DNA from: Alphaproteobacteria bacterium
GTDB lineage: Bacteria > Pseudomonadota > Alphaproteobacteria > Rickettsiales > SXRF01
NCBI GenBank assembly: GCA_033763575.1
Contig: JANRKF010000010.1
Coordinates: 13,376 to 77,375, forward strand
Reading direction: 5' to 3'
DNA length: 64,000 nt
Made by a program: the position numbers and the translations under genes. Positions 163 to 57,904 of the stretch are shown piece by piece. The notes under the pieces were generated by a model. That model was not told where the DNA came from. It made no database searches and saw only the letters and a list, made by a program, of their open reading frames with translations. The stretch's first letter is position 1, and each line of letters opens with the position of its first letter.

Positions 163-1110
163 TTATTTTTTCACTCCCATACGTGCGAATACGGCATTCA
201 GCTCAGCCAGCACATCGCCGCGAATATCTTTCCTGCCCAGCGCATAGGCCACGTTGGCGGCGACATATCCCACCAACCCGCCGCAATCATAGCGCGTGCC
301 GTCGAACCTATAGCCATGGACATCCCAAAAATTTCGCGCAGGGTTGGCGTGGCGGCTGCGCGAATTTTTGGCGCTTATTAAGCTTGCAATCGCGTCGGTG
401 AGCTGGATTTCCCCGCCCGCACCGGGCTTCTGCTTCTCCAGTATATTGAAAATTTCCGGCTGGAGGATATAGCGGCCAATGATGGAAAGGGTCGAGGGCG
501 CCTCGACGGGCTGTGGTTTTTCCACCAGCCCTTTCGCCTTGACCAGCGCGGCTTTGCTTTGTTTTTTATCGGCGATATCAAGGATGCCGTAGCTCGCGGT
601 ATGCTCGCGAGGAATATCCATCACCCCGAGGATATTGCCGCCCGCCTTGCCATAGGCCTCCACCATCTGCTGCATGCAGGGCTTTTTGGCGTGCACCATG
701 TCATCCGCCAGAATGACCGCAAACGGCTCATCACCGACCAGATGGCGGGCGCACCACACGGCGTGGCCCAGCCCCAGCGGCTCCTGCTGCCGCACGAACA
801 CCAGGTTCCCCGGCTTCGGCAACCAATCGCTGGTAAGCTCCAGCTCACGGTGCTTTTCACGCTTGGAAAGCGTGCTTTGCAGCTCATGCACATGGTCGAA
901 ATGATCTTCAATCGCATGTTTGTTGCGGCCCGTAACGAAGATAAACTGCTCGATACCCGCCGCCCGCGCCTCTTCAAACGCGTAGTGAATCAGCGGTTTA
1001 TCAACGACCGGCAGCATCTCCTTGGGCATGGATTTGGTGGCCGGCAGGAAGCGCGTGCCAAGGCCTCCCACGGGGAATACGGCCTTGCGGATCTTGGGTG
1101 GTTTGCTCAT
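163..1110 (-). CDS. galU: UTP-glucose-1-phosphate uridylyltransferase
   Basis: [43 protein letters not shown] motifs; ATG at 1110 preferred over the upstream TTG. Confidence 0.96.
325..371. repeat. 47-bp near-perfect inverted repeat inside galU
   Basis: ccaaaaatttcgcgcag...ctgcgcgaatttttgg (16/17-bp arms) encoding [16 protein letters not shown] between DAIASLIS and DVHGYRF. Confidence 0.75.
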
Positions 1111-1226
1111 AAGAAGGGCAGAGATGCCGCAAATAACGCCAAAAGTCAAAATATTACTGATACCCCTTGACAGATGGTTGGTTATGGCTATGTTTCCTGC
1201 CTCGAATTAATAAGGATACCCTCGCT

Positions 1227-1394
1227 ATGGCAAAGAAAAATATTGTGTTGATTAAACTGGTAAGCTCCGCCGACACCGGTTTTTATTATGTGGCAAAAAA
1301 GAATCCGAAAACCAAAACGGAAAAGCTCAATTTCCGCAAGTATGACCCGGTCGTGCGCAAGCATGTCGTGTTCAACGAAGCGAAAATTAAATAG
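1227..1394 (+). CDS. rpmG: 50S ribosomal protein L33
   Basis: [21 protein letters not shown]...[18 protein letters not shown]. Confidence 0.97.
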
Positions 1395-1400
1395 CGCGCC

Positions 1401-1772
1401 ATGACGCAGCCCACCGGGACGACCTCCGAAATAAGCGCGCCGATTGCGGTCACGCCCGACCAGCTCACTGCCAATAAGATGGTGACGGACAACGTGCTCA
1501 TGCTCGCGATGCTGTTCGCGATCTTTTATTTCATCCTGATCCGCCCGCAGCAAAAACGCATCAGAATCCATAAAGACATGATCGGCGCGCTGGCCAAAGG
1601 CAACCGCGTTATCACCAGCGGCGGGCTGATCGGCACCATCACCAAATTTGAGGGCGATAACGTGGTGGTGATTGAAGTGGCGCAGGGCGTGAAGGTACGC
1701 ATCGCCAAGAGCGCCATCAGCGAAGTGACGGACGAAAAAATAAGCGCATCCGACAGTGCGAATGATAACTAG
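1401..1772 (+). CDS. yajC: preprotein translocase subunit YajC
   Basis: FYFILIRPQQKR, GNRVITSGGLIG motifs; upstream of secD. Confidence 0.95.
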   Translation: MTQPTGTTSEISAPIAVTPDQLTANKMVTDNVLMLAMLFAIFYFILIRPQQKRIRIHKDMIGALAKGNRVITSGGLIGTITKFEGDNVVVIEVAQGVKVRIAKSAISEVTDEKISASDSANDN

Positions 1773-1856
1773 GTTTCAGGTGACAGGAACAAGGTGACAG
1801 AGTATAAGTCACTACGTTCTTACCTGACACCTTCAACCGGACATCTGACACCTGCC
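1771..1856. repeat. heptamer-arm palindromic element, (AGGTGWC)n...(TGACACC)n family
   Basis: aggtttc aggtgac aggaaca aggtgac ... cctgaca ccttcaa ccggaca tctgaca cctgcc fills the yajC-secD spacer. Confidence 0.8.
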
Positions 1857-1858
1857 TT

Positions 1859-54982: not shown

Positions 54983-55047
54983 AAAAAAACAACGCGATCA
55001 ATGTTATAGTAGGAGCATGAATATAATTTCCGCTGCCGGAGAGAGAT

Positions 55048-56535
55048 ATGGCTGATAAACTCGAGAAAAAACCAACACCGGAAACATTAATCGCAGAGTT
55101 CATAGGAGCTCAGCTTGACCGGAAAGCAAACCAATTCCGGGGGATGGGTCCCGACGATCTCTTCAGCGATTTTCTTATAGATGGCCATGTGGATAACCAA
55201 GCACGGCACCTCCGCAAGATAGAACATGTAGGTGATGATGGCACGGTAACTTTTCCTAATGGATTCGCCGCCCAAAGGCCCTCCGTAGATAGTGTTCTTG
55301 TATCTGAGAGGGGTAGAAGTAGTATACTCGCATTTGACCGGAATCGTCAAATCGCCGCGCATCTGCTGCGAACGCACGAAAGATTGCGTGATCGGACCGA
55401 GGGGTTTTTCAACCAACAACAGCCAGGACCTGACGTGGATTCGGTGTTACCGCTGTTGGGCGAGATGCCTAGAATTCCACTGTCATCGGAAATTCCTGGG
55501 TTAACAGAGAAAGATCGCGCTTATCTTGAAATCAACCGGCCCAACACGAGTACGGACGAGAGGGAGACTCATGCCCAACAGGTCGCCGAATTAAGGAAAA
55601 AATTCGATCGCGATATCGGGCAGCTCTCAAAGTTGCTGGCCGGGCTTCCGGAAAAGGAAATGGAAGAGGCGCTGCATAGCATTACCCTCGCCGCCGGCAC
55701 CGATAAACCAATAATAGATCCCAACCCATTCATGGGGAAGCAATATGACCGCAGGGAAACGCAAGCCTTGGCGGCTCAAGTCGTCGCACTGAGAGACAAG
55801 CAAAATCCAAAGCCCATTGAAGTCGCGCAGGCTCCGCCGCCCACACCGGAAAAACCTACTGTCGCAACGGCAGTGGAAACGCCCCCGGCCACGGGCAATG
55901 CCAATACTATTAAAATAGTGCTGGACGGCGGCGAGGCGCTTACGTTTACACGCGCTGGCGAAACGATTGCCATGGAAAATTCCGATGTCAATCCCGGCAA
56001 CCCCATCACCCTCACTTTCCTCGGCGGTATCGATGAGACATGGGCAAAATTATCAGATTTTGCAAAGAACCTGAATGACCCTGCAAAAAGCGAACTACAT
56101 CAAGTCGCAAGAATGGTAGTGGACGAGATATTGACCGAGAAAGATGGCGTGGCCTACAAGATCGCCGGTCGCCTGGGTGCAGAGCATGACAAACGGAAAA
56201 TTGACGACATACTGAATATAAAAGCCCCTGAGCAAACGGCCTCCGTAAGCCCGCCGCCGGTCAAAGCGGCAGTAGTGGCTGAGCCGCCACAGCCCGCCAC
56301 CGAATCACCGGCCCAAACGGCACAGGCGGCACAATCGACTTTATTGGAATCAATAGCGGCAGCGGCAAGGTTGCCCTTCACGCTTCCGGTCGCTGTGGCC
56401 CAAAAGATGCACGACGATGCCCGGCTTTTGCTGGGTATGGCTCCAAAGCATATGGCTGATAACACTCTGCCACAGGGCCGGGTGACTTTGGGCGCGGTGT
56501 TTCCTCCTAAATCTGACGAACTCTCTCCTACATAA
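55048..56535 (+). CDS. orphan hypothetical protein with Ala/Pro linkers
   Basis: 495-aa ORF between rimM and trmD. Confidence 0.8.
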   Translation: MADKLEKKPTPETLIAEFIGAQLDRKANQFRGMGPDDLFSDFLIDGHVDNQARHLRKIEHVGDDGTVTFPNGFAAQRPSVDSVLVSERGRSSILAFDRNRQIAAHLLRTHERLRDRTEGFFNQQQPGPDVDSVLPLLGEMPRIPLSSEIPGLTEKDRAYLEINRPNTSTDERETHAQQVAELRKKFDRDIGQLSKLLAGLPEKEMEEALHSITLAAGTDKPIIDPNPFMGKQYDRRETQALAAQVVALRDKQNPKPIEVAQAPPPTPEKPTVATAVETPPATGNANTIKIVLDGGEALTFTRAGETIAMENSDVNPGNPITLTFLGGIDETWAKLSDFAKNLNDPAKSELHQVARMVVDEILTEKDGVAYKIAGRLGAEHDKRKIDDILNIKAPEQTASVSPPPVKAAVVAEPPQPATESPAQTAQAAQSTLLESIAAAARLPFTLPVAVAQKMHDDARLLLGMAPKHMADNTLPQGRVTLGAVFPPKSDELSPT

Positions 56536-56565
56536 CCCCCTTCCCTTCGCAGTAAACTGTGGTAT

Positions 56566-57420
56566 ATGGCGGACATGACGCTGTTTTCCGCCATTACGCT
56601 TACCCTTTTTCCGGATATGTTCCCGGGACCGCTCGGCCATTCGCTGGCGGGCAAGGCGCTGGAAAAAGGCATCTGGAGCCTGCAAACTCTTGATTTGCGC
56701 GACTTTGCGCTAGATAAACACCGCACGGTCGATGATTCGCCTTACGGCGGCGGCACCGGCATGGTGATGAAGCCGGATGTGCTGGCAGCGGCGCTGGATC
56801 ACGCGAAAACCCTGCTGCCGGGCGCCACGCTCATCTACCCCTCGCCCCGTGGCGTGCCGATAACGCAGGCGCTTATACAGCAATTGGTCTTTGGTCATGG
56901 GTCTTTGGTCAATGGTAAGAATGCACCAAAGACTAAAGACCAACAACCAAAGACTCCCTCCGTCATCCTCCTCTGCGGCCGTTTTGAGGGGATTGACCAG
57001 CGGATTATCGATCATTATGGCCTTCTGGAGGTAAGCCTCGGTGATTTTGTGCTTTCCGGCGGGGAAATCGCCGCGCTCGCCATACTGGATGCGGCGGTCC
57101 GCCTGCTTCCGGGGGTCATCGGCAATGATGAGGCGACCAAAAACGACAGTTTCTCGCTGGGTGAGGCAGCAGCCGAACGAGCCGTCAGCGGCGCCCCATG
57201 CGATTTTCAGAAGGAAATCGCGGGGGCAGCTAAAAATTCCGGGAACCATGCAGATTTCGGTAGACTCCTCGAATATCCTCATTATACTCGCCCGCCTGAT
57301 TGGAATGGACTTGGCGTGCCGGAAGTGCTATTATCCGGCGACCATGAAAAGATAAAAAACTGGCGATTGCAGCAAGCAAAAGATATTACGCGTGCGCGAA
57401 GGCCGGATTTACTGAAATAG
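56566..57420 (+). CDS. trmD: tRNA (guanine-N1)-methyltransferase
   Basis: [51 protein letters not shown]. Confidence 0.97.
56884..56955. repeat. 72-bp heptamer-arm palindromic element in frame inside trmD
   Basis: ttggtct ttggtca tgggtct ttggtca ... caccaaa gactaaa gaccaac aaccaaa gact. Confidence 0.88.
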
Positions 57421-57442
57421 AACTACAAAAAGGATACGAGCA

Positions 57443-57817
57443 ATGAATACGCTACAAAAATTTGAAGCCGCAACGCAGGCGAAGCTGGCTGAAGGCAAGA
57501 AGATCGATGCATTCTCGCAGGGCGACACCGTGCGCGTGAACGTGCGCATCATCGAAGGCAACAACGAGCGTATCCAGGCGTTTGAAGGCGTATGCATCGC
57601 AAAGAAAAATGCCGGCCTCCGCTCGGCGTTCACAGTGCGCAAAATCAGCCACGGCGAAGGTGTTGAGCGCGTATTCCCAACCTTCTCCCCGCGTGTTGAC
57701 AGCGTTGAGCTGATTCGCAAGGGCACCGTGCGTCGCGCAAAACTCTACTATCTCCGCGGCCTCACCGGCAAAGCGGCGCGTATTGCTGAAAAACGCGATA
57801 TCCAAACCGAAGAATAA
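57443..57817 (+). CDS. rplS: 50S ribosomal protein L19
   Basis: [38 protein letters not shown]. Confidence 0.98.
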
Positions 57818-57904
57818 TTTGGTTTTTAGTCTTTAGTCGTTAGTCTTTGGTCTTTGTCGCTAGAAACTAACGACCAAGGACCGAAGCCCCATGACCAAGG
57901 ACCC
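57818..57904. repeat. heptamer-arm element (TTWGTCT family) at the rplS-leuC junction
   Basis: tttagtc tttagtc gttagtc tttggtc ... actaacg accaagg accgaag ... accaagg. Confidence 0.8.

Follow-up and report, generated by a model that had tools for sequence, protein, structure and literature searches.

Small palindromic DNA elements are scattered over the 1.94-Mb genome of an alphaproteobacterium (G000; 35 contigs, 55% GC). We analysed a 64,000-nucleotide stretch of this genome (C10:13376-77375, the window), in which such elements occupy gene junctions and also lie in frame inside genes such as trmD, galU and sbp. Taken genome-wide, they probably represent a load of small selfish palindromic DNA, made up of at least three unrelated cassette classes and of miniatures without an open reading frame (ORF), and not one peptide-donating system. 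Each class would occur in two forms, one with a small gene between class-specific inverted repeats and one consisting of the two ends alone. The evidence comprises presence or absence of elements between congeners, ends common to the forms with and without an ORF, long duplications of the target at cassettes with an ORF, and loci that are depleted within genes and enriched at gene ends.

The genome is a metagenome-assembled genome (MAG) with a completeness of 92%, and was assembled from a drinking-water metagenome run. Related genomes come from uncultured Alphaproteobacteria and are mostly filed publicly as 'Rickettsiales bacterium' MAGs. The reference for empty sites was the syntenic congener G002 (74-87% DNA identity), complemented by orthologue alignments.

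Genome-wide census and placement of the elements

Dispersed families were detected by self-BLAST and profile searches, and hairpins with heptamer or octamer arms by a tandem-repeat finder (TRF) census. The 21 profile families and the TRF hairpins amount to 404 loci that cover 39.7 kb, or 2.0% of the genome. Every family of the window is multi-copy genome-wide except the galU hairpin, which was rejected as a dispersed family since the genome has no second copy. The preliminary description of the window had reported several sequence-unrelated palindromic families in junctions and coding sequence, and the census agrees with this. The elements listed there are present at or near their reported positions and fold into hairpins, with the exception of an array in thiD.

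Folding z-scores against dinucleotide shuffles ranged from -4.1 to -7.6 for 11 of the 16 elements tested. Weaker values were obtained for a truncated F1 copy at 29244 (-2.0), the F2 element at 9400 (-2.5), the octamer hairpin (-3.1), the thiD array (-2.4) and the galU hairpin (-1.9). The F1, F3 and F7 families consist of 90-130-bp elements at 19-58 loci, with z-scores of -4.7 to -7.6 apart from the truncated F1 copy. An Rfam search of the window returned two tRNAs only, and no known RNA family at the elements.

The distribution of the loci is far from random, with counts that are approximate because the genes were called with a home-made codon-usage model. Only 62 loci lie deep inside predicted genes, compared with 206 expected at random (3.3-fold depleted). 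The loci overlap gene 3' ends in 122 cases (27 expected, 4.5-fold enriched) and gene starts in 56 (26 expected), and 137 are intergenic (45 expected). Counted per gene with overlapping family hits merged, 63 internal loci were found in 55 genes, including alaS, thiC, queA, nadC, recG, an RNase R-like gene, carA, lipB and sucB (names read from the sequences by eye, without tool confirmation). Each family uses one reading frame at its internal loci and hence encodes a family-specific peptide. All 63 internal loci retain long open frames and coding signal on both sides.

In-frame insertions and empty sites

In G002, empty sites correspond to both trmD elements, to the galU, znuC and thiD elements, to the F7 element between rpsP and rimM, and to the F1 copies at 18225 and 23396. 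By alignment with G002 or other orthologues, the in-frame cases in trmD, galU, thiD, sbp and znuC are real insertions relative to close orthologues, which do not carry the extra residues. Of these, trmD, galU, thiD and sbp had been proposed before, and znuC is an addition. The peptide encoded by the znuC hairpin, CHPGEGRDD, is also read in seven other proteins. In sbp, a ribosome-binding site and ATG are conserved upstream of the F3 element, and the signal peptide is 46 aa long compared with 20 aa in G002.

The N-termini of rimM, trpS, hemB and leuC had also been considered as probably element-derived, with mixed outcome. The start ATG of rimM does lie inside the end of the F7 element, and in G002 the rimM ATG overlaps the rpsP stop. 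In hemB, one heptamer arm is translated (MSVTCHLPPAP...). The arm on the trpS side is open in frame, but translation could also begin at a TTG that lies immediately beyond the arm, which leaves the origin of the trpS N-terminus undecided. The case of leuC was dropped, as its canonical ATG (MKTLYDK) lies after the element. The thiD repeat, taken earlier for a local tandem repeat, is actually one copy of a dispersed, non-palindromic ten-copy family.

The trmD gene carries two insertions and was followed most closely. In an alignment of 31 TrmD sequences, most orthologues lack both inserts, and in other genera these loops, or ones close by, hold other elements. In an AlphaFold model of the protein, pLDDT exceeds 90 in the core and is 43-57 in both inserts. 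An independent Logan contig from the source run spans trmD with both inserts and one mismatch, and in a contig of a separate study insert 1 is identical. It is hardly credible that the in-frame inserts are errors of MAG assembly or binning, or pseudogene marks in a decaying genome. The assembly is fragmented and incomplete, and its contigs break at repeats; for instance, the ileS contig ends within an element. However, the two contigs above reproduce the trmD inserts, the genome contains a single full copy of trmD, relatives have analogous inserts at the same TrmD loops, and coding signal is present on both sides of every internal locus.

The in-frame insertion of so many unrelated families had led to the proposal of a general peptide-donating system, in which the repeats are kept for useful loops, linkers, parts of signal peptides and termini. 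We consider such an adaptive role very unlikely. It would account for the single frame and conserved peptide of each family, for the RR and hydrophobic stretch that the sbp insert supplies in keeping with a signal peptide, for the element-derived termini of RimM and ThiD, and for the linker positions of TACCGAG arrays such as that in the E2 linker. However, the elements are depleted inside genes, close orthologues work without the inserts, and the inserts lie off the protein core in low-confidence parts of the predicted structure. Moreover, at least three classes are unrelated to each other and have different partner genes. A related idea, that heptamer arms are favoured in coding sequence as frame-independent stop-free arrays, was rejected: only 11 of 38 hairpins have stop-free units, whereas random heptamers should be stop-free in 58% of cases. 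The simplest view of the family-specific peptides is that they are what selection leaves, not a function.

ORF-bearing forms of three hairpin classes

The window contains no candidate mobilising gene, as had been noted before. Full-length elements with an internal gene exist elsewhere in the same genome, for three hairpin classes. The helper genes suggested earlier were GIY-YIG, DUF559, four-helix-bundle and REP-associated tyrosine transposase (RAYT) genes, REP standing for repetitive extragenic palindrome. The first three types are indeed bracketed by the same kinds of hairpins as the ORF-less elements. A RAYT/Y1 transposase was rejected as the mobiliser because the genome has no PF01797 match; control searches were positive in 6 of 14 genomes.

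Class 1 consists of (C/T)GTCAT-tagged GC hairpins in head-to-head pairs (families F3, F5, F6 and Fx10; 147 loci). Its ORF-bearing form contains a gene for a GIY-YIG nuclease of about 95 aa. Five of the six small GIY-YIG ORFs in the genome lie between F3- or F6-type hairpins, and the F3-type ends of the sbp element also bracket the GIY-YIG gene at C35:125972. At least two of the GIY-YIG cassettes are accompanied by 33-45-bp duplications of the start of the downstream gene. In relatives, about 14 of 20 GIY-YIG genes are bracketed likewise according to a reading of the printed flanks; automatic hairpin detection under-called these cases (3 of 18, then 8 of 20).

By inspection, the class 1 hairpins have the form CGTC-ATCCCGGCG-AAGG-CCGGGAT-CCA and similar, with an 8-9-bp stem that starts with AT, a 4-5-nt loop and a CCA-like tail, and they form head-to-head dimers (42263-42355 and 53134-53228). 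In these features, in the lack of a RAYT partner, in the mostly alphaproteobacterial hosts and in the location of some copies within genes, they resemble the CGTC REPs of Di Nocera et al. 2013 (PMC3733652). The latter include Rickettsia RPE-4 and RPE-6 and Neisseria dRS3, are in part intragenic, and were described as a family that 'apparently lack[s] a dedicated transposase' (PMC3733652). In stem, loop, tail and pairing, the (C/T)GTCAT hairpins fit the CGTC-REP superfamily. They differ from it in that TGTC is commoner than CGTC (among 179 hairpins of CGTC-REP shape, 85 have TGTC, 63 CGTC, 23 GGTC and 8 AGTC) and in that head-to-head pairs enclose GIY-YIG nuclease genes. A literature search for papers linking GIY-YIG or DUF559 to palindromic repeats found no such paper in the collection searched.

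Class 2 comprises G/C-rich bipartite hairpins that encode PLPEGEG-like peptides (F7 and Fx25; 23 loci), and its ORF-bearing form carries a DUF559 (Vsr-like) nuclease gene. The ends of the F7 element at 54329-54441 are built like those of the DUF559 cassettes. Of these cassettes, one is found between argD and argF and is associated with a 24-bp duplication of the argF start. Another is located in frame inside ileS of G000 (C14:19173-21596), flanked by the hairpin-encoded peptides PSPSGRGLGEG and PSPNPLPEGEG. In relatives, DUF559 is found in frame in IleS (G010, at another site), DnaE and RecO, and F7-type bipartite hairpins bracket these copies (loci L109, L115 and L112). At the G010 IleS site, G000 retains the peptide of the right-end hairpin, as read by eye.

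The nuclease motifs of the nested DUF559 domains (VDF...ELDGxQH) look intact by eye. Pfam matches in the nested hosts were limited to the host domains and DUF559, with a weaker overlapping match to REase_MTES_1575 and no Hint/intein domain. Unlike a homing endonuclease gene or an intein, the nested DUF559 domains come with no intein motifs, and hairpin-encoded peptides flank them.

Class 3 includes hairpins with 25-35-nt arms of about four tandem 7- or 8-mers (76 loci). The TRF census detected 38 hairpins with inverted arms of tandem units, 30 of them built from 7-mers and 8 from 8-mers. At least a dozen different units occur, and the architecture represents a real class because the controls were close to zero: one direct-partner case was seen, and none at periods 6 or 9-11. 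The ORF-bearing form carries a gene for an Avd-like four-helix-bundle protein (PF05635), a family that resembles Avd, the accessory protein of diversity-generating retroelements (PMC10053308). PF05635 ORFs lie between inverted tandem-heptamer arms in 2 of 2 cases in this genome and in 27 of 30 in relatives, where the unit differs from cassette to cassette. The TTGGTCT unit of the trmD hairpin also forms the arms of the PF05635 cassette at C2:32115, and the loops of ORF-less hairpins retain the cassette leader motif GGTAAGAA, as identified by eye. An ORF cassette in G002 at the site of the octamer hairpin was considered and rejected, as an ordinary histidine-phosphatase gene is found there.

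The closest known counterpart of class 3 is the intervening sequence of 23S rRNA genes in Coxiella and Leptospira. In Coxiella, it has a 28-bp stem with tandem heptamers ahead of an S23p ORF and is excised by RNase III (PMC4990558). As in the cassettes, a PF05635 ORF lies between terminal inverted repeats of about 28 bp with tandem heptamers. The intervening sequence is likewise viewed as a selfish element of unknown mobility, and ORF-less versions exist. In contrast to its location in helix 25 or 45 of 23S rRNA, all copies examined here are in mRNA operons or coding sequence, and each cassette has its own heptamer unit.

PF05635 cassettes (loci L116-L145) occur at the same operon gaps in different genera, namely iscS-iscU, pdhA-pdhB, cysH-cysD and upstream of surE. 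Arm sequences vary between them while complementarity is kept, an indication of long residence and of selection on the stem.

Families without a partner gene

The F1, F2 and F4 families account for 167 loci. Among the 49 loci of F2, 26 overlap gene 3' ends. The F4 block includes the palindrome TGCATTTTTTGCAAAAAATGCA, with TTCCGGGACACA after it, and many copies adjoin REP hairpins; F4 may represent a promoter or an operator instead of a mobile element. The TACCGAG array is present in ten nearly identical copies, all ten of which lie within genes and on the sense strand. G002 has one copy, and none was found in 80 other genomes of the order, which restricts the array to this genus.

Possible origin of the elements

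We infer that the elements would land anywhere in the genome and that selection would remove the insertions that break genes. The survivors would then be found at gene junctions, where the stop or start may often be a new one from the element, or in loops and linkers that tolerate insertion; those inside genes would be read in the one stop-free frame and so yield the family-specific peptide. The nucleases may mobilise the elements by cutting DNA, which would drive the insertion of their own cassettes and, in trans, of the miniatures.

As an alternative, the elements could be RNA or DNA structures that serve the host (RNase III sites, terminators, mRNA stabilisers or protein-binding iterons) and are selected at junctions, with the small ORFs as passengers. 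This is unlikely, though less so than the peptide-donating system. The enrichment at gene 3' ends is what it would predict, and so is the retention of PF05635 cassettes with diverged but complementary arms at the iscS-iscU, pdhA-pdhB and cysH-cysD gaps across genera. The stems of rRNA intervening sequences are RNase III substrates (PMC4990558), and REPs are widely regarded as RNA elements (PMC3733652). However, presence and absence vary between congeners at most sites, and comparison with G002 reveals the same gap filled by different families in different species. Copies in coding sequence cannot be terminators, no runs of T follow the hairpins by eye, and no Rfam family matches them.

Several observations weigh against an explanation by small selfish DNA. 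No transposition or excision event was observed. Short target-site duplications were not evident at the seven empty-site comparisons with G002, and, as far as empty sites were examined, the ORF-less copies lacked clear target duplications. Joints of excision or insertion at element ends were absent from public contig data, an absence that is uninformative at 3-5x depth. DUF559 is absent from G002. PF05635 is not a nuclease and its cassettes share gaps across genera, so that these cassettes look old and stable, not mobile. For F1, F2 and F4, no convincing pair of split ends around an ORF was found in this genome. The TACCGAG array, being non-palindromic and restricted to the sense strand, is unexplained by the cassette model, and the placement counts carry the uncertainty of the gene calls.

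A broader synthesis is quite possible, if short of probable. The missing partners of in-frame palindromes such as the Rickettsia palindromic elements (RPEs) and the CGTC REPs may be minimal nuclease cassettes, with GIY-YIG genes in head-to-head (C/T)GTC-REP pairs and DUF559 genes in G/C bipartite hairpins. These would produce 24-45-bp target duplications and could reside unspliced and in frame in IleS, DnaE and RecO. The tandem-heptamer hairpins may in turn be related to the 23S rRNA intervening sequence, as ORF-less forms that have spread to mRNAs and coding sequence throughout an alphaproteobacterial order.

Comparison with known systems

In-frame palindromes are established for Rickettsia, where RPE-1 to RPE-10 have been described (Ogata et al. 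2000, 2002; reviewed in PMC10969869). Both here and in Rickettsia, one small alphaproteobacterial genome contains several 100-150-bp palindromic families, which are found in frame in unrelated housekeeping genes with one frame per family. The inserts lie in tolerant surface regions, and no mobilising enzyme is known. The likeness is one of architecture, and the only link by sequence class is indirect, through RPE-4 and RPE-6 as members of the CGTC REPs (PMC3733652). In contrast to Rickettsia, the host studied here is a free-living-looking member of a drinking-water lineage with 55% GC, its hairpins also bracket GIY-YIG, DUF559 and PF05635 ORFs, and heptamer-armed hairpins and a non-palindromic array are present in addition.

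The REPIN/REPtron system, formed by RAYT genes and GTAG REPs (PMC3116915), offers the parallel of a single-copy enzyme gene flanked by hairpins that also exist in many ORF-less copies. It differs from the elements described here, which have no Y1/RAYT gene and no GTAG tags, and whose candidate enzymes are nucleases, not tyrosine transposases.

MITEs (miniature transposable elements with inverted repeats) that fuse in frame with genes of the host, such as the Coxiella QMITEs (PMC5896051) and intragenic ERIC/RU elements (PMC2759123), are also small inverted-repeat elements at junctions and inside genes that create new peptides and termini. Unlike MITEs, the elements studied here have no insertion sequence or transposase parent that we could find (only the Y1 family was searched directly), and their ORF-bearing forms carry GIY-YIG, DUF559 or PF05635. 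No short target-site duplication was evident at the seven empty-site comparisons; the duplications at ORF-bearing forms are 24-53 bp long.

In-frame palindromes as such are known from Rickettsia RPEs and CGTC REPs, the insertions since 2000 and the CGTC REPs since 2013, and it is the links to cassettes that look new. The presence of ORF-bearing and ORF-less forms side by side in three hairpin classes provides testable pairs, such as a GIY-YIG or DUF559 protein with its own hairpin and empty site. The data also connect heptamer-armed hairpins to the rRNA intervening sequence, the origin of which is likewise unexplained. Entire nuclease domains are accommodated in frame by IleS, DnaE and RecO. 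A practical consequence is that gene calls in MAGs become inflated and split by such inserts, and that assemblies break.

Elements and other features of the window

The window has ordinary housekeeping content, with galU, secD, znuCB, glmM, thiD, rpsA, sppA, addA, phoR, trpS, hemB, ubiX, sbp, ffh, rpsP, rimM, trmD, rplS and leuC. Its elements are listed in Table 1. They include five F1-type hairpins of 105-130 bp (18225, 22480, 23396, 29244 and 50499) and GC hairpins at 5899, 42263, 53134 and 54329. An F1-like copy in G002 (C2:21525-21647) probably corresponds to the element at 22480, with shared presence deduced and not read from a site alignment.

Table 1. Palindromic and repeat elements of the window, with comparison to G002 and number of copies in the genome.
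Element	Position	Strand	Remarks
galU hairpin, 42 bp (14 codons in frame)	328-369	-	Inverted repeat; 42 bp exactly missing in G002; single-copy in genome
Degenerate AGGTGAC/GTCACCT heptamer hairpin, upstream of secD	1780-1854		TRF period 7; different GC hairpin there in G002
TGTCATCCCGGCGAAGGCCGGGATGACA hairpin, (C/T)GTC-REP class, in frame in znuC (CHPGEGRDD)	5899-5933	+	25+ genome copies; net +15 bp vs G002
Octamer-armed hairpin, GGTTGCTA/TAGCAACC type, filling the znuC-znuB gap	6342-6437		Family of 13 loci
(TACCGAG)4.7 array, 33 nt, in frame in thiD, non-palindromic	8883-8915	+	10 genome copies; net +12 bp vs G002
F2 element over thiD 3' end, giving last ~6 codons and stop	9400-9489	+	49 genome loci; thiD C-terminus differs in G002
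CAGGTGW heptamer hairpin, rpsA-sppA gap	12750-12826		Inverted repeat, z = -4.7; absent from G002
F1 120-bp hairpin	18225-18350		z = -7.6; empty site in G002, flanking genes there overlapping by TTGA
F1 120-bp hairpin, sub-family b	22480-22605		Within G002-aligned block 21346-23364
F1 hairpin, sub-family c	23396-23500		Empty site in G002
CAGGTGA heptamer hairpin; 27-nt arms bound entire trpS-hemB divergent spacer	26284-26419		Arms 96% complementary
F1 element, truncated, ahead of ubiX	29244-29347		Edge of 2-kb insert missing from G002
F3 pair of CGTCATTGCGAG hairpins, in frame inside sbp signal peptide	42263-42355	+	42 genome loci; G002 comparison
F1 120-bp hairpin, after ffh	50499-50628		z = -5.0
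F4 repeat block (TGCATTTTTTGCAAAAAATGCA...TTCCGGGACACA)	53037-53127		60 loci, mostly intergenic
F5 head-to-head pair of (C/T)GTCAYCCCGC hairpins	53134-53228		z = -7.2; 52 loci
F7 G/C-rich bipartite hairpin, rpsP-rimM; right end bears rimM start ATG (MGGEK...)	54329-54441		Absent in G002
TTGGTCT heptamer hairpin, in frame in trmD (24 aa peptide)	56884-56955	+	Net +57 bp vs G002
F2 element, in frame in trmD inter-domain linker (29 aa)	57147-57239	+	+87 bp vs G002
TTWGTCT heptamer hairpin, rplS-leuC gap	57825-57903		Overlaps only optional upstream ATG of leuC

Several other features of the window differ from G002. A BrnA-antitoxin gene (27683-27985, PF14384) lies in an insert of about 620 bp (27334-28063), which leaves space upstream of the gene for a brnT partner. 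A 53-bp stretch of the hemB 3' end is duplicated directly (94% identity) on the two sides of this insert. The geometry follows the long-target-duplication pattern of the GIY-YIG and DUF559 cassettes. G002 lacks the entire 2-kb hemB-ubiX stretch that holds this insert. A Schlafen/AlbA_2-domain ORF (43458-44672) is located beside a pair of tRNA genes (44849-44921 and 44953-45026); relative to G002, this region is rearranged.

Between rimM and trmD, an orphan ORF of 495 aa within 55048-56535 has a weak coding score and no family match, and G002 is about 900 bp shorter here. The orphan ORFs 50745-51998 and 52008-53015 have no Pfam or NCBIfam match, and the interval from ffh to the acyltransferase gene is about 1 kb shorter in G002. 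Upstream of this pair, TGTCACAAAAT is repeated 1.9 times in tandem at 50640-50660 and resembles a Pho box. Tandem 10-mers are also found at 10751-10836, where 4.4 copies of TAAGCTGAAA are followed by AACCAGCAGG, upstream of an orphan ORF of 393 aa (9486-10667, minus strand).

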